Below, in pieces: positions 11,144-44,400 of a stretch of DNA of 64,000 nucleotides (positions are counted from its first letter, which is position 1; every line of letters starts with the position of its first letter). Source of the DNA: Camelus dromedarius (taxonomy: Eukaryota); contig NC_087436.1 in assembly GCF_036321535.1 (NCBI RefSeq), positions 27,096,001 to 27,160,000 of the forward strand, read 5' to 3'. Below the pieces are notes generated by a model. The model was not told the origin of the DNA and did not search any database. It saw only the letters and a program-made list of their open reading frames with translations. The position numbers were made by a program, and so were the translations under genes.

Positions 11144-12111
11144 CATTTTGGCATTGATTAGAGATGCAGAACATGGCAGAAATCTGTGTTGTTTCCATCT
11201 GATATATTCAGGGTGCAGAAGACTGCTAATTAAGAGAACTGGTTAGAAGCATTTTTTCCCCCTAATAAAGCATGTATTATGTTTGTCCTATAGAAACTAA
11301 GAGTCAAAATCTAGTTACATTTGATGGTAACCAAGCACCTTGTTCATTATAATAGGCATATTCTATCACATATCAGAAAGATTACCCAGAGGGAGTGGAT
11401 TTATGCATAAAATTTCAGATTTTGAAACTGAAGTCTCAAGTCATTCTGACAAGGGAGAAATTTTGAGGCTTCGTTGCTATGGAAATATCTCATGGACAAG
11501 TATCAAAAAGTTAAGCATTTTGATCATTGTCAAAAACCCTTCAAATAGATGAGAGTTAATAAAGCCAGTTGAAGCTGATAGCAAAGGAGTAATTTAGGTA
11601 AGAAACAATTAACGTTATTGTTTGAAAGATTACTTGTCTTGTAATTTGCCCAGATTGAACAATGTGAGAACCCAAAACAGACTTGCTAATAATACATGGA
11701 CTTGAGAGCTTAGTCAGGAAACAACATATACCGGAAAGCAGGTAACTTTAGAGTGATTAAATTCAGACACTGGATGAAGCTGATTGGAAAGGGAAAAGGT
11801 AGGGAGACTTGGGAGAGACTTTCTACATGACTGTATAAGACACACAGCACCAACTGGATGGACACCTACCAAGAACTGTAAGTTACTGCTTGCTCCATCC
11901 TTCAGACCTAAGGTATCTTCTTGGTCAACTATAAATAAAAGTATGTTTTGACTTGATTGATTAAACCTATTACTCTTTCCTGACAATCTAGGCATAAAGG
12001 AATGTTCACAGTACATTTGAGTCTAACACCTCCTGATAGAGAATCTGATTTAAATCCTTAATTTTCAAGACTACCATGTTCATATATTATATCTTGCTCT
12101 AAATTTGTTTT

Positions 12112-13030
12112 ATTGAAGTATAGTCAGTTATAATGTGTCAATTTCTGTTGTACAGCAAAATGTCTCAGTCATGTATATATATGCACATATACTCATTTTC
12201 ATATTCTTTTTCATTAAAAGTTATTACAAGATATTGAATGTAGTTCCCTGTGCTATGCAGAAGAAATTTGTTTTTTATCTATTTTACATATGGTGGGTAA
12301 TATGTACAAATCTGAAACTTCTAAATTCATCCCTTCCTACCTCCTTACCCCCTGTAAACATAAGATTGTTTTCTATGTCTGCAAGTCCAATGAAGACATA
12401 CAAATGACCAATATGCACATGAAAAAATGCTCAATATTGCTAATTATCAGACAAATGCAAAACAAAACTACAATGAGGTATCACCTCACACCAGTCAGAA
12501 TGGCCGTCATTCAAAAGTCCAGAAACGCTGGAGAGGGTGTGGAGAAAAGGAAACCCTCCTATGTGGTTGGTAGGAATGTAGTTTGGTGCAGCCATTATGA
12601 AAAACAGTATGGAGATTCCTCAAAAGACTAAAAATAGACTGACCATAAGATCCAGCAATCTCACTCCTGGGCATACATCTGGAGGGAACTCTAATTTGAA
12701 AAGATACATGCACCCCAATGTTCATAGCAGCCTTATATACAATAGCCAAGACATGGAAGCAACCTACATGTCCAATGACAGATGACTGGATAAGGATGTT
12801 GTGGTATATATATACAATGGAATACTACTCAGCAATAAAAAAGAATAAAGTAATACCATTTGCAGCAACACGGATGGACCTGGAGATCATTCTAAGTGAA
12901 GTAAGCCAGAAAGAGAAAGAAAACTACCATATGATAACACTCATATACGGAATCTAAAAAAAAAAAAAAAGAAGAAGAAGAAGAAAAAAGAGGACACTAA
13001 ATGAACTCATCTACAAAACAGAAACAGACT
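12112..13030 (-). mobile_element. 5'-truncated L1 with 5' inversion (3' UTR on minus strand 12112-12381; ORF2 C-terminus and proximal 3' UTR on plus strand ~12386-13030)
   Basis: ORF2 C-terminal peptides on + ([48 protein letters not shown]); L1 3' end on -; duplicated TAAATTTGTTTT at 12100-12111 and 13032-13043. Confidence 0.93.
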
Positions 13031-28719: not shown

Positions 28720-29109
28720 ATATACACACACTTGCTTTACTTTCTGTAATGTCTACTCTCTTAAAAATAAAAACTTTTAGTCATTTTACAATGTTGTATC
28801 AAATTCTAGTGTAGAGCACAATTTTTCAGTTATACATGAACATATATATATTCATTGTCGCATTTTTTTTTCACCATGAGCTACCACAAGATCTTGTATA
28901 TATTTCCCTGTGCTATACAGTATAATCTTGTTTATCTTTCTGCATTTTAAAATCCCAGTCTGTCCCTTCCCACCCCCCGCCCCCTTGGCACCCTCAAGTT
29001 TGTATTCTATGTCTATGAGTATGTTTCTGTTTTGTATTTATGGGTTTTTTTTTTCAGATTCCACATATGAGCGATCTTATATGATATTTTTCTTTCTCTT
29101 TCTGGCTTA

Positions 29110-29421
29110 CTTCACTTAGAATGACATTCTCCAGGAACATCCATGTTGCTGCAAATGGCGATTGTTGTCGGTTTTTGTGGCTGAATAGTATTCCATCATA
29201 TAAGTATACCACTTCTTCTTTATCCAGTCATCTGTTGATGGACATTTAGGCTGTTTCCATGTCTTGGCTGTTGTAAATAGTGCTGCTATGAACGTTGGGG
29301 TGCAGGTGTCATCCTGAAGTAGGGTTCCTTCTGGATTTATGCCCAGGAGTGGGATTCCTGGGTCATATGGTAAGTCTATTCCTAGTCTTTTGAGGAATCT
29401 CCATACTGTTTTCCACAGTGG
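29110..29421 (-). pseudogene. L1 ORF2 C-terminal remnant
   Basis: Minus-strand translation [32 protein letters not shown]...[33 protein letters not shown]. Confidence 0.92.
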
Positions 29422-29564
29422 CTTTCCTTGCTTCCTTCTCCCAGTCTTAATTATTTAGATGTCTTCTTTTACAATTTTGTCTTTAATCTTTTTGTAATTC
29501 ATGGCAGTTATCTCCTTTCCAGTCATGAGTTTCTCATTTTTGTGGCATCCTGCTGCTTTTCTAT

Positions 29565-30464
29565 TTAGAGTAGACCTGTCAATATTTCTTTTAGCATGGG
29601 TTTAATGTTGCTAAACTTTTTTAGTTTTTGCTTGTCTGTGAAGTTCTTTATCTCTCCTTCTGTTCTAAAGGATAGCCTTGCTGGATAGAGTATCCTAGGC
29701 TACATCTTTTTTTCATTCAGGACTTTGAATATATCTTGCCCCTCCCTTCTGGCCTGTAGTGTTTGTGTAGAGAAATCAGCTGAGAGCCTTACGGGGGTTC
29801 CCTTGTAACTCACTCTTTGTTTTTCTCTAGCTGTCTTTAGGATCATTTCTTTATCCTTGACTCTGGCCATCTTGATTATGATATGTCTTGGTGTGGGTCT
29901 GTTTGGGTTCTTCCTGTTTGGGACCCTCTGCATCTCCTGTACTTGGATATCTGATTCCTTTAGGTTTGGGAAGTTTTCAGTCATGATGTCTTCAAATACC
30001 TTTTCAATCCCCTTTGTTCTTTCTTCACCTTCTGGAACCCCTATTATGCGTAGATTGGCACGCTTTATATTATCCTATAGGTCCCTTAAATTGTTTTCCT
30101 TGTTTTTTATTTGTTTTTCTCTCAGCTGTTCTGATTGGGTGCTTTCTGTTGTCCTGTCTTGTAGGTCACTTATTCGTTCCTCTGCATTATCTAGCCTGCT
30201 TTGTACAGCCTTTATATCAGCTCTCATCTCAGCAAATGAGTTTACTAATTCTACTTGGTTCTTCTTTATAGCTTCTATTTCATTTTTGACATATTTTATA
30301 TCTCTAAACACTATTTCTTTAAGTTCCTTCAGTACTTTGATCAGTCCTTTTTTGAGATCTTGATCTAGTAGGCCATCAATGTCTATTTCCTTGATCATGC
30401 TTTCAGGGGATTTCTCTTGATCTTTTAATTGGGAGTGGTTCCTCGGCTTCTTCATATTGCTCAT
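29565..30464 (-). pseudogene. L1 ORF1p (300 codons including stop), two in-frame premature TAG stops, no frameshift
   Basis: MSNMKKPRNHSQLKDQ...coiled coil...RDL*DNIKRANLRIIGVPEGEE...RPTPRHIIIKM...KGTPVRLSADFS...KM*PRILYPARLSF...LKEILTGLL*; stops at 30075-30077 and 29700-29702. Confidence 0.95.
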
Positions 30465-31800
30465 ATCTCTCTGGCACTGTGGCTTAAGGAGTATCAGTTA
30501 TCTAGTTCTCCTGGAGATGGTGTGCTCTTAATGATTTTATCAAGAGGTCTTTGTGTCTTCGCTCTGTTTTGCGAACTCAGCTTGCTGTTTTCAGAGGCCC
30601 TCTGTTGGCGCCTTCATCTGCGCTGCTCCAGTGCCTGTCAGCTAGCAGTTTGCACCTCTCCTAATACTGGGTCAGGTGCTGAGCCCTTACCCAGTTGGCG
30701 GGTGGGTCACTCCCCCTCCTGATGCCACAGTCAGATGCTGCGCTCCGGTGAGGCAAGTGGGCGGATTGTGCCCCCTCCCAGCACTGTGGTCAGGTGCTGC
30801 CTTCCTGCCAGGAAGGTGGGGGGCCGCCCACCCTCTCCCAGCGCCAGTCGCTCCACTGCTCTGTGCATGTGCCCACTCCGCCTCGGGTCAGAGCTCTGAA
30901 GTTGGGCTCGAGGAAGACTGCAGAACGGCCCCGCCCCTGCTCTGTGCCAAATCTCAGCTCCTTGTTTGTCTTGGCCTGGCCGGCGTGAGTTCTCTGAGGT
31001 GCCAGGGCAGAAAGATCCTATCTGCCTTGGGCTGTAAACAAGTCTCAGTCCTGCCTAGGAGGTTGCGGAGCCCCGGGGTATGGATTCAGGGCTTGGCCCC
31101 ACCCCCACCTGGGTGCTGCGCACAGGAGATGGTGGCTGTGGCTGCACCCTGCCTCTCTTCATGGGAGAAGCGCCAGTAATGGCGGCGCAGGTCTGAGGAG
31201 ACAGAGGCTACGGCGCCCTTCCCCCTAGGGCACACCAGCCGTGTTGCTTTGCTTTTTTCACAATTTATGGGGGACTGAGGTTGTTCTGCTCCATATCCCC
31301 TCCCAGCCACGGTGCGCAGCACCCTGCAGTCCCCCAGGGCTGTCTCAGTGCAGCCGCCCCAGTCCTCCGCCCGGCTCCGGAGGCCTGTCTCAGCCCCCAG
31401 CTGCCTGCTCACGTCTCGGGCTGGGTGTCGTGGGGACCCTTTGTGCCCATTTAACTCAGTTCTGTTGGTCAAGGGGTGCTCAAGGCAGATCTGAGCCTCG
31501 GAGGCTCCCCCTCCGTCCCGCTGGCCTCTCCGTTGGAGGGGGGAGACCCAGCGAACGAGCGCCAGCCCTCCTTTGCAGCTCCCTCCCCGCAGGACCAGTC
31601 CCGCACTGTTTTGCTTTTTCTTCTTTCTTTTTTCCTTTTCTCCTACCAGAGTTTTTGCGTCTTTGTCTTTCGAAGAGGACGATGTTCTGTCGGAGTTCGG
31701 CAGGTGCTCTGGTTGACTGAGTGGGTCCGTAGATGTGAGTTTTGGTGTATTTGTGGGAGAGGGTGAGCTACAAGCATCCTTCTACTTCGCCACCTTGCTC
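30465..31800 (-). promoter_or_regulatory. L1 5' UTR, GC/CpG-rich internal promoter region
   Basis: The only extended CpG-rich stretch in the window; lies upstream of ORF1; minus strand begins GAGCAAGGTGGCGAAGTAG (variant of the CAAGATGGCG YY1 motif). Confidence 0.85.
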
Positions 31801-31909
31801 TAAAAACTTTTATTTTATTTTTAAGTTTTTATTAATACTTCTTTCTAATAGAGGGTGTATTTGCAATGTATAGCCAAAAGTAAGAATAGCTACCTCTTAA
31901 AGAAAATTC

Positions 31910-32550: not shown

Positions 32551-34620
32551 TTATTTATTTTTACTGGTAAAAAATATGTATTCCCCATTTTAACCATTTA
32601 TAAGTGTACAGATCTGTGGCATTGAGTACATTCATAATGTGGTGTAACCATCACCCCTATCCACCTCCAGAACATTTTTTGTCAGAACATTGTCATCATC
32701 ACAGAAACTCTGTGTCTATTTAACAGTCATGCCCCATTTCCCCCTCTCTGCAGCCTGTGGTAACAACTACTCTACTTTCTGTGCCTGTGAATTTGGCCTA
32801 TTCCAAGTACCTCATATAAGTCATGTCGTACAATATTTGTCCTTTCGGTCTGGCTTATTTTGCTTAGCACAAGATCATTAAGGTTCATCTATATTGTAGT
32901 GTGTATCAGAATTTCACTGCTTTTTAAGGCTGAATAATATTCTATTCTATGTATATACTCCATGTTGTTAATCCACTCATCCATCACTGGACATTTGGGT
33001 TGTTTCTGCCTTTGAATTTTGTTAATAATCCTGCTATGAACATAGATATACAAAAGTCTGTTCATGTCTCTGCTTTTAGTTCTTTCTGGTATGTAATCAA
33101 AAGTGGAATTGTTGGCTCTCATGTTAATTCTATGCTTAATTTTTATGAAGAACCATCATACGTTTTCCACAGTGGCTGTACCATTTTGCATTCCCACCAG
33201 TAATGCACAAGGGTCCTAATTTCTCCACATCCTTGTCAACATTTGTTACTATGTCTTTTTTTTTAACTGCATTTATCTAATGATTTGTGATCTTGAATGT
33301 TGTTACATGTGCATTAAGCAATATTTACATGCTATAAGTGCAGTTATCATTGTGCTTATTAGCAATTTGTGTATCTTCTTTGAAGAAATGTTTATTCAAA
33401 TCCTTTGCCCATTTTAATGGAATTTTTGTTGTTGTTTGTGTTTGCTGAGTTTTAGGAGTTTTTTTGTTTTGTTTTGTTTTGTTTTTACATTTTGGAGGTT
33501 AATTCCTTATGATAGATATGATTTGCAAATAATACTTCCATTCTGTGGGTTGCTTTTTCAGTTTCTTAATAGCGTCCTTTCATGAAAAAAACTTTTTAAT
33601 TTTGTTGTAGTAAAATTTACAGTTTTTTCTTTTTTTAACTGTACTGTTGGTGTCATATCCAAGAAATCATTGACAAACTCAATACCATGAAGCTTTTCCC
33701 TTTATTTTCTTCTAAGCATTTCATAGTCTTAGCTTTTACATTTAGAAATTTAATCCCTTTCTAATTATTTTTTGAATATGGTGTAAAGTAAGGGTCCAAC
33801 TTTATTTTTTCAATAATGATACCCATTTCTCCTAGCAACTTTTGACTGCCCTTTCCTTTTTGAGTTATCTTGCCACCCTTGTCAAAAATCATTTAATCAT
33901 ATGTGTGAAGATTTAGTACTGAGTTCACTATTCCATTTTATTCCATGCCATTCATCTTTAAGTTTGTCTTTATGCCAGTCCAACACTGTTGCAATTACTG
34001 TAGCTTTGAATAGGTTTTGAAATCAAGAAGTGTGATTGATTTCATGAACTTTGTTCATCCTCTTCAAAGTTACTTTGAGTAGTTTGAGGTCTCTTAAGAT
34101 TCCATATAAATTTTAGTATAGGTTTTTCTGCATCTGCAAAGAATACCACTGGGTTTTGATAGAGATTACATTGAATCTGTAAATTGTTTTGGGTAATATT
34201 GACATCTTAAAAATATTAAGTCTTCTAGTTTATGGACATGGAATGCCTTTCCATTTATTCATTATTTCCATTTAATGACTTTCATCAGTGTTCTGTAGTT
34301 TTCATTGCACAAGTTGTTTACTTCCTTGATTAATTTTTCCTAAGTAGGTTTTTTATTTTAAATGTTTTTGTAAGACGGATTGTTTTCTCTCTCTTTCTCT
34401 CCTTTTTTTTTTCTTGCAGTTTTCATTGTTTGTATAGAAATGTGAATGAATGTGCTGATTTTGTGTTCTAAAACCTGTTGAATATATTTACAAGGTTTAA
34501 CAATTGTGTCTCTGTGTGTGTGTAATCTTTAGGCATTTTTTATTAATAAAATCATATCATCTGTAAAAAGAGATAATTTTACTTTCTTTGCAATTTGGAT
34601 GTCTTTTATTTATTTATTGC
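32551..34620 (-). mobile_element. Old L1 (L1MB-like) 3' ~2 kb
   Basis: 3' UTR CCATTTTAACCATTTATAAGTGTACAG...GGCATTGAGTACATTCA and degenerate ORF2 (KQPKCPVMDEWIN...EYYSALK). Confidence 0.9.
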
Positions 34621-40103: not shown

Positions 40104-41345
40104 TTTTCTTGTTTTGTGCCCACTTTTAATTCAGTTTTACATTTTTTATTTTTATTTTTTATTGAAGTATAGTCAGTTTACAATGTTGTGTCAATTGCTA
40201 GTGTAAGACATAATAGTTCAGTCATACATATAAATACATATAATCATTTTCACATTATTTTTCATTATAGATTACTACAAGATATTGAATATAGTTCCCT
40301 GTGCTATACAGTAGAAACTTGTTTATCTGTTTTATATATAGTAATTAGTATCTGCTAATCTCGAACTCCCAATTTATCCCTTCCCACCCTCTTCACCTCC
40401 TGGTAACTATAAGTTTGTTTTCTATGTCTGGAGTCTGTTTTGTAAATAAGTTCATTTGTCTTATTTTTAGATTCCACATGTAAGTGATATCATATGGTAT
40501 TTTTCTTTCTCTTTCTGGCTTACTTCACTTAAAATGACAATCTCCAGGTCCATCCATGTTGCTGCAAATGGCATTATTTTACTATTTTTTATGGCTGAGT
40601 AGTATTCCATTGTATAAATATATCATAACTTTTTTATCCAGTCATCTGTTGATGGAATCTTGGCTATTGTAAATCATGCTGTTATGAACATTGTATTGCA
40701 TGTATCTTTTCGAATTAAAGTTCCCTTTAGATATATGCCCAGAAGTGGGATTGCTGGATCATATGGTCAGTCTATTTTTAGGCTTTTGGGGAATCTCCAT
40801 ACTGTTTTCCATAGCAGCTGTACCAAACTACATTTCCACCAACAGCATAGGAGGGTTTCCTTTTCTCCCCACGATCTCCAGCATTTGTGGATTTTTGAAT
40901 GATGGCCATTATGACTGGTGGGAGGTGATACCTCATTGAAGTTTTGATTTTCATTTCTCTGATAATTAGTGATATTGAGCATTTTTTCATGTGCTTATTG
41001 ACCATTTTATGTCTTCATTGGAGAATTGCTTGTTTAGGTCTTCTGCCCATTTTTGGATTGAGTTGTTTGTTTTTCTTTCTTATTAAGTTGTGAGAGCTGT
41101 TTATATATTCTGGAAATTAAGTCCTTGTCAGTCTCATCTTTTGCAAATGTTTTCTCCCATTCTGTAGATTGTCTTTTTGTTTTACTTACGGTTTCCTTTG
41201 CTATGCAAAAGCTTATAAATTTAATTAGGTCCTATTTGTTTATTTTTGCTTTTATTGCTATTGTCTGGGTAGACTACCCTAGAGAACATTGCTAAGATTT
41301 ATGTCTGATGTTTTGCCTATGTTTTCTTCTAAGAGGGTTATAGTG
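40104..41345 (-). mobile_element. Younger 5'-truncated L1 with 15-bp TSD
   Basis: TGCCTTTCACCTTTT at 40089-40103 and 41346-41360; ORF2 peptides [23 protein letters not shown] and [18 protein letters not shown]. Confidence 0.93.
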
Positions 41346-41455: not shown

Positions 41456-44400
41456 TATTATATTGCTTTTGCTTTTGGTGATTTTTCCAAGAAGACTTGC
41501 CTAAGGTTAAAAAGGTCTACTCCTATCTTTTGGCCTAGGATTTTCATAAATTTAACTCTTACATTTAGATCTATGATCCATTTGGGGTTATTTTTTTGTG
41601 CATGGTATAATTTAAAGGTCCAAATCCATTCTTTTGCATGTAGATATCCAGTTATTCCAGAATCATTTATGAAAAAGACTATTTTCCTCCACTGAAATAT
41701 CTTGGCACCTTGTTAGAAATCAATTGACTAAAAAAGTAAAGATTTATTTCTGGACTTTCAATTCTGTTAGATTAATCTATAGGCCTGTTCTTACACCACA
41801 CAACCTTAAATACTGCAGCTGTGTAGTAAGCTTGAAATCAGAAGTGTGAGGCTCTAATTTTGTTGTTCTTTTTCAAGATGGTTTTTACTCTTCTGGGTTC
41901 CTTACATTCTCATATTAACTTTAGGGTCAGCTACATGATTTCTGCAAAATTGGCAGATTATTTTGATAATGATATCATTGAATCTGTGGATAATTTGGGG
42001 TGTATTGCCATCTACTAACATTGTCTTTTAGCCATAAACATAGAATGTCTTTCTATTTATTTAGGTCTTCTTTAATTTCTTTCAATAATGTTTTCTATTT
42101 TTCAGTATAGTTTTGTACTCCTTCTGTTAAAGTTATTCCTAAATATTTTCTTTTTGATGCCACTGGAAATAGAATTGTTTTCTTAATTTATTTTTAGGTT
42201 TTCCATATATAAAATATATAAATACAATTTTTGTGTATTTATTATTTATCCTACAAGATACTTATCCTTCCTTAAAACCCATGATTTTACATATCCACAT
42301 CTGTACATCATATTCAAAGCTTATGCCTAAATTATTGTATGTATTACAGGTAGAATTTCTTTTTGTGTGTTTTCAATCAGTTAGCTGCTCCTAACTTACT
42401 TCTTATATAACAAGACTGATGTAATTGTATATGGAAATTAATGTTGAAATAGAAGTGTAAATGAAGAAATAGAAGAAGAAGGGAACTAGTTGACAACCTG
42501 AGGACAGGTCTTACAAATCTCAGTAATACATACTAGCTTCCCTCTTGTTCTTAGCATCAACTACTTCCTCTAATCATGGGATAGATGAGATAATAATAAT
42601 ACAAGTTAGTGCACAAGAATTTTTCAGTGCATAATATTTTTTAAAGGTTTAAATGATGATACACATCACACAGAAAGAAACAATAATAGTTATATTTTTT
42701 AAATATATTATGCCACACAATCTAAGAAAAAGTAAGAAATTAAATCTTTTATAGGAATCAACATTTCCTAAGTTAGCTCTCTTAACCTAAATTGTACATT
42801 CTCTCTAGGTGATTATCTTCTTTTAAACTCTATCACTAGTAATCATGACATTTGACCCCTAGATAAACATTAGGCTCATCTCAGGATATTCCTTCTATCT
42901 TTGAGTCTCTGTTACTCAGTATAAAGTCTAAAGAAGTTCAAATTAAATGATGCTTGATAGCTTTTGGTACTCTGACAGCTTATTTTTGTCCCCTTCGATG
43001 TCTACTTATTTTTGGTACAGAGCAGGAAAGAAAAGTTTGAGAGCAGGCCTATGCACAGTTACTCCCTAGCCAGGAGTTTTTGGGGAATGAATGCTCTTGA
43101 TCAGACATCCATCCCTCAACACACAGTAAGTAATGGTATTTACAAAAAAGCGTGAGCATGCGTATAATATGTTTTTCTTTTAATCAGTTTATACAGGCAT
43201 CTATTTAGATTGTTTGTGGAAAACAAACCTGAAATTTGTGGATTTATGAAGTATGTAGAATAGGGATGGTCACATAGGCTGTGTAATTAGTGGAGAATAA
43301 AATGAAGATATTGCAAGACCAAAATATCTCCCTTCTATATCAGTGTTTTTACATACATAATTTAAAAACTTGTCTGCTTTTCCCCAAAGTAAAAAAAAAA
43401 AAAAAATGCAGAGGAAAAAGACAGCTTTTTAAGGGAGGTTCAGCAGACTATTTTGGGGTTTCTCCGGGAAAAACGTGGCACATATGTTCATGATACATGC
43501 CTGCCACTTTTAAATTACTAGTAAAACTTGATGTAGGTAAGATATATAATTTTCCTGAGTTAACTTTAACAATTTGACTCTTTCTGTCAACATGCAGGGA
43601 TACATTGTCCATTGTTCACATTTCTTTGAGTTAGTGTTTCTTTGAGTCAGCTGTAAAACTCATATATAGCCTCTCTTAGGATAAAGATAGTCTCAATGAT
43701 ACTCTAAATCCAGTGAGGCAAAAAGAAAGAATAGAGTCTTAGAGACACATGACTTAATACATGTATACAATTATCCACTTACCTGGGAAATCCTAGCACT
43801 CAATGATGATAGACATCAGCAGTAGTAGTGGTGGTGGAAATGGTAAATATATCTTTGTTATATTAAGGACAGATTCCAAATTTCAAAAATTGGCCTAGAG
43901 ACAGGCCTGGGGATCATCATTAGTCTACTATAACCTGTGGTGCCTCAGATGATAGCTGCTGGTGAACCGAATTAACACCTCTTCTTTTTCACTTACATCA
44001 TAGGCATGGAATGATTTTAACTTAATGAGGTATTCTAGTTCAGTGATATCTTAATTAGTGTATACATTTGCATTTTATTAAACAGGAAAATTCAATCTGA
44101 AAACCTGTACACTAATAAGTGCATTTTAATTGTTGAAAATACAGGATTACTAGCCAGAGAAAAAGAGTATCACCTTCTAGATATATTCATGACAGGACAA
44201 TTTTCAGAATTGAAGGGGTGTGTCAGACACTGATAAATAACAGTTAGCATCCATAAAAATTCTGAACATACCATCAGGCACTAATATCCTGCCCACATTT
44301 TTTGCTGATTTCTGTGCATTCCTTCATGCAATGTAAAATTCTATAAACATTTGGACTGACTGGGCAACATTTATACAAATAACAAAATTAATTCAAATAC

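Follow-up and report, generated by a model that had tools for sequence, protein, structure and literature searches.

The element described here is a camelid L1 on the minus strand of a 64-kb window, the whole stretch of Camelus dromedarius DNA that was analysed. It comprises 3,021 bp between two copies of a perfect 12-bp direct repeat. The copies, at 31801-31812 on the 5′ side of the element and at 28768-28779 on its 3′ side, are identical, and the 12-mer is present just twice in the window. When the two flank stretches were shuffled 2000 times, a shared word of at least 12 bases arose in 13 cases. A first-pass annotation of this DNA had described an element of about 3.0 kb inside one perfect 12-bp target-site duplication, and these measurements bear that description out. 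Read in the sense of the element, the first 1,336 bp (31800-30465) form an L1 5′ UTR with a predicted internal promoter region, a GC content of 59%, and 52 CpG dinucleotides at an observed/expected ratio of 0.44. Its first bases match, by eye, the starts of pig L1B consensus sequences; the 5′ UTR, which had been called complete, is apparently complete. Next come ORF1 (30464-29565; 299 codons plus a stop) and the first 141 bp of an ORF1-ORF2 spacer of the long type (29564-29424), recognized by alignment to the pig L1 spacer. The spacer remnant becomes 143 bp when the shared AG is counted, in line with the earlier estimate of about 140 bp. This AG, the junction dinucleotide at 29423-29422, could belong to either side of the join. 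Beyond it lie the last 368 nt of ORF2 (29421-29054), delimited by comparison with paralogs, and 274 bp of 3′ UTR (29053-28780). An Rfam search of the 64-kb window returned no matches. Elsewhere in the window, two stretches of about 230 bp (34154-34388 and 41961-42183) are 68% identical and are probably old interspersed repeats.

The translation of ORF1 matches the Pfam families PF02994 (Transposase_22, E = 2.7e-27) and PF17490 (Tnp_22_dsRBD, E = 3.6e-21). ORF1 had been reported as a frameshift-free frame of 300 codons. The single frame stands, whereas its intactness does not: TAG codons interrupt it at codons 130 and 255. The protein is 83, 88, and 78% identical to the three best proteins from NCBI contigs and about 60% identical to pig L1 ORF1. 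Of the 242 residues on which the two database ORF1s nearest to it agree, 12 are privately changed in this protein, which indicates that the element is a decayed copy. Four proteins named Camelus dromedarius LINE-1 ORF2 match the start of the ORF2 remnant at 90-95% identity, over stretches of about 22-30 residues. By sequence comparison, the lineage of the element is that of camelid L1. A turtle-labelled protein scores equal to those four entries; its identity to the end of camel L1 ORF2 is 93%, and it is near-identical to the camel entries, which suggests contamination or a mislabelled record. Given two stops in ORF1 and an ORF2 remnant that cannot be translated, the element is a dead copy.

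The ORF2 leftover had been put at about 100 codons. The end of ORF2 is indeed present, but it is longer than that, running for 368 nt, or about 122 codons, from 29421; it is frameshifted near 29160-29171 and contains no in-frame start codon. On the other side of the junction, the final 41 bases of the spacer can be aligned gap-free with a pig spacer of the L1B type, with 28 of 41 identical by eye. A protein search with the spacer frame against 1.84 billion representatives gave one match, a protein of 41 aa that is 70% identical and ends at the same terminal stop. The stop of this short frame (29458-29568, minus strand), being common to that protein, probably belongs to the family and is not a private decay of this copy. 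It lies 11 codons ahead of the junction with the ORF2 remnant. An ORF1-ORF2 fusion protein was considered and rejected: ORF1 has its own stop, the spacer-frame stop intervenes before the ORF2 remnant, and no start codon follows.

The 3′ end of the element is irregular as well. About 10 nt before the point where two older copies in the window, those at 40157 and 12108, have AATAAA, the 3′ UTR breaks off and runs straight into the 3′ repeat. None of 12 poly(A)-signal hexamers occurs in the last 66 nt of the element, and no A-tail precedes the 3′ repeat. The copies at 40157 and 12108 carry both the signal and an A-rich tail. The missing tail is a second irregularity in the same copy as the internal join. 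Reconstruction of the site before insertion gives an A-rich target of the endonuclease type, and the repeat begins with two bases that coincide with the next ones expected in the L1 3′ UTR. The absence of a tail would be explicable by internal priming, which the accessible text of PMC5322556 describes for tailless retrocopies, or by later loss of the tail.

Other L1 copies in the window have structures of their own. Two of them, at 40157-41150 and 32889-33233 on the minus strand, are older 5′-truncated L1s that are 75% and 68% identical, respectively, to the 3′ part of the element; the first has a normal signal and an A-rich tail. The copy at 12108-12973 is an older L1 with a 5′ inversion, in which the 3′ UTR end (12108-12381, minus strand) is joined to a piece of the ORF2 end on the plus strand. 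An 8-base repeat near 12100 and 13033 may be its duplication. This arrangement suggests twin priming, with the unusual feature that the inverted piece bears the poly(A) signal.

The bases at the internal join had drawn attention in the first-pass annotation because the lost segment was said to end in CAG, like a 3′ splice site, and the retained upstream side in AAG, like the end of an exon. Both are seen. The junction AG at 29423-29422 is real, the Pro codon of ORF2 starts at 29421, and all three other copies in the window that cover the junction have CAG immediately before this codon, with exactly two upstream bases in common with the element. Pig L1A1, as given in supplement 1 of PMC6501411, has CAA at the acceptor position. 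The surroundings of this putative acceptor were measured on paralogs of older subfamilies, which are 75-82% identical to the element and are not its source subfamily. In the two longer paralogs, the pyrimidine fraction over the 18 nt upstream is 0.39, and a second AG occurs 10 nt upstream of the acceptor in both. Among the YAG sites of two paralog ORF2 ends, the tract ranks 16th of 17 and 17th of 17. Three camel ORF2 proteins that span the site read W-E-C-S-L-V/A-Q, and the C-S reading is consistent with an upstream AG in the element’s own subfamily also. A random break in these ORF2 ends would mimic a YAG acceptor in 2-3% of cases in the exact register and in 7-9% over three registers. The junction AG provides some, modest support for splicing. 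The older copy at 40.8 kb had suggested a 5-base microhomology, which was abandoned; camel ORF2 proteins of the element’s subfamily appear to imply other bases at that place.

For the donor side, spacers of pig L1 consensus sequences from supplement 1 of PMC6501411 and a pig spacer from the supplement of PMC5381506 were used as a proxy for the camel full-length spacer; they are mutually related and about 30% diverged from camel in this region. Of 37 places, 28 are listed; 26 of these are spacer passages, and the other two lie in ORF2. In the column that corresponds to the junction G of the element, the 26 listed passages have T in 24 cases, A in two, and G in none, and GT in register is found in none of them. 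In the 12 passages of the youngest type, a GT lies two bases upstream of where a donor would need it, as is also the case for the pig spacer in the PMC5381506 supplement. Because no spacer passage among the 26 listed has G in that column, the junction G more likely came from the ORF2 side, and a join with a 1-bp overlap would be the simplest reading. The pig-type GT could come into register through a slight shift in the A-run. The donor comparison leans against splicing without closing the matter.

Recurrence of the junction was examined in DNA and in protein. In the 64-kb window, the junction 20-mer and a spacer 25-mer, searched with up to three mismatches, found only themselves. A protein search with 40 residues spanning the junction gave 29 matches, 28 of which have native ORF2 before the Pro and one of which has an unrelated N-terminus; a spacer-derived N-terminus appears in none of the 29, in a test of low power since copies with this junction would rarely be called as proteins, given the stop 11 codons before it. 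These negatives, drawn from a 64-kb window and from protein matches of low power, are weak evidence on recurrence. In a search of sequencing runs, 14 of the 24 listed runs, from two organisms, share 0.72-0.77 of the words. These shares are uninformative on the junction because 0.69-0.76 is expected from nothing more than the flanks and words common to the family. When the antisense frame that crosses the junction was used for a protein search, no candidate emerged, and no camel L1 DNA was found in viral contigs or genome contigs. A scan of metagenome contigs reduced 174 candidates to four loci, all from another L1 lineage with a short spacer. These short-spacer contigs are 68-75% identical to the camel-type ORF1 end; they represent a different mammalian lineage and are probably carried-in animal DNA.

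Several accounts of the missing middle can be weighed on this evidence, and the probabilities that we attach to them are judgements rather than computed values. The best fit, to which we give slightly better than an even chance, is that the element is a single internally deleted, tailless camelid L1 that arose by a non-splice deletion at 1-2 bp of microhomology. The first-pass annotation had named deletion at a short microhomology among its explanations, and the poor acceptor context and the lack of an in-register GT in the listed pig spacers bring it to the front. It is further favoured by the failure to find a second junction in the window, by the absence of spacer-derived N-termini among the 29 proteins, and by the missing tail. 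Counting against deletion is the AG pattern itself: if an exon ending in AG had been spliced here, two shared bases and then a mismatch would be expected, and a break falls in this register by chance in 2-3% of cases. A splice would run from a donor in the spacer to the AG that precedes the Pro codon of ORF2, and the retrocopy of the resulting ORF1-only mRNA, similar to the spliced integrated retrotransposed elements known as SpIREs, would have been inserted by the ORF2p of another L1. The CAG that ends the lost segment in three of three window paralogs and the AAG on the upstream side agree with such an origin. Spliced L1 copies do exist, the accessible text of PMC5860796 giving 131 among 6,609 full-length human L1PA1-6 elements, and the camel element shares with SpIREs an internal deletion within a duplication and a lost segment that ends in AG. 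However, the SpIRE classes in that text are intra-5′ UTR and 5′ UTR/ORF1; they lose sequence there, arise repeatedly at fixed GT-AG sites, and retain ORF2. The acceptor context in the camel paralogs is among the poorest nearby and has a competing AG 10 nt upstream, and the donor, judged from pig spacers alone, has neither a GT in register nor a G at the last exon base in any of the 26 listed passages. An RNA lacking ORF2 would also require mobilization in trans, and the copy is in addition tailless. The suggestion of a spliced retrocopy, which rested on the CAG and AAG ends, therefore keeps those ends but is weakened, although not refuted, by the acceptor context and the pig spacers, and we regard it as distinctly unlikely.

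A second consideration that counts against a one-off deletion is that the copies of a multi-copy family, should there be one, would be more numerous than single events, so that a randomly met copy would more probably belong to it. Such a family would be a camelid counterpart of the non-autonomous HAL1 (half-L1) elements: a master element would have lost ORF2 by deletion while retaining its promoter, ORF1, and 3′ end, and ORF2p from full-length L1s would have mobilized it in trans. The architecture is that of published HAL1 elements, which in the accessible texts of PMC5322556, PMC2241872, and PMC5753468 have only ORF1 and lie within duplications: the camel element likewise keeps the L1 5′ UTR, ORF1, and the L1 3′ end, lacks the ORF2 endonuclease and reverse transcriptase, and is flanked by a target-site duplication. 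The nearest example, pig HAL1_SSc in supplement 1 of PMC6501411, has a 5′ UTR, ORF1, and part of the spacer. HAL1 families, where present, supply most ORF1-only copies; the rat has about 7,500 HAL1 copies according to the portion of PMC2241872 available. Against a camelid family stand the lack of a second junction in the window or in the 29 protein matches, both of them weak tests, and the absence of the poly(A) tail that PMC5322556, in its accessible text, states as a HAL1 feature. HAL1_SSc is also built differently, with non-L1 AT-rich sequence after its spacer piece (by eye, from the PMC6501411 supplement), whereas the camel element keeps 368 nt of the ORF2 end and is known as one copy. In the main text of the camel transposable-element paper (PMC8605555), the term “HAL1” occurs zero times. 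We consider a HAL1-like family unlikely, albeit less so than a spliced retrocopy. The element is built like a HAL1 but is not classed as one, since it has no tail and no second copy of the junction was found in the window or among the 29 protein matches. The least probable account is an assembly artefact, in which the middle of a full-length L1 collapsed and its two ends, each anchored in unique sequence, were connected directly. Long L1s are difficult to assemble. However, the window contains no N, and assemblers do not usually join sequences on an overlap of 1-2 bp.

The favoured internal deletion accommodates the features of the element: a duplicated target site of the endonuclease type, a 5′ end that is close to complete, a same-orientation join of spacer to ORF2 tail at 1-2 shared bases, and the lack of a poly(A) signal and tail. 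The lost segment would amount to about 3.7-3.9 kb, as estimated from the lengths of pig spacers (390-529 bp) and of ORF2 (about 3.8 kb). In the mechanism that we propose, a full-length L1 RNA would have supplied ORF2p in cis, and reverse transcription would have been primed just upstream of the tail. The middle would then have disappeared in one of two ways: the reverse transcriptase jumped along the RNA at integration, or end-joining repair removed it once the element was in place. A single copy such as this one cannot tell a reverse-transcriptase jump from later end-joining. Template switching is discussed for L1 chimeras in the accessible text of 10.1101/2025.02.02.635956.

This structure has counterparts among known L1 products. 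Internally deleted L1 copies, whether from a template jump during target-primed reverse transcription or from later end-joining, likewise show a same-orientation join at 1-2 bp of microhomology within one duplication. Tailless or 3′-truncated retrocopies, as described in the accessible parts of PMC5322556 and PMC2912911, resemble the element in having no A-tail, a clear duplication, and a two-base match between the RNA end and the target. They differ in that the published cases are mainly small RNAs and mRNAs, and the target of the camel element fits the TT/WAAAAWW consensus only in part. Twin priming was rejected for the element, which has no inversion; the deletions of that class have a median of 14.5 bp in the available portion of 10.1101/2024.08.27.596794, in contrast to the approximately 3.7-3.9 kb lost here. 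The element is thus real and probably an ordinary internally deleted L1, with a structure already known in kind. The literature searched, a body that excluded Bao and Jurka 2010, Belancio 2006, Repbase, Dfam, and the supplements of PMC8605555, yielded no account of a splice from the spacer to the end of ORF2 and none of a HAL1 in camelids.

As a single deleted, tailless, and dead L1, the element has little importance and would serve at most as a presence/absence marker in camelids. A broader proposal is that a camelid L1 spacer donor is spliced to the ORF2 end, yielding an ORF1-only mRNA that was repeatedly retrotransposed or that founded a HAL1-like family; we hold this to be very improbable. 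Recurrence of the junction at loci with different duplications would indicate a camelid HAL1-like family, and a GT at the break in the camel source as well would tie the origin of HAL1 to splicing. If spacer-to-ORF2-end splicing were true, it would provide one route to HAL1 elements and would also allow L1 to produce ORF1p with no ORF2p.
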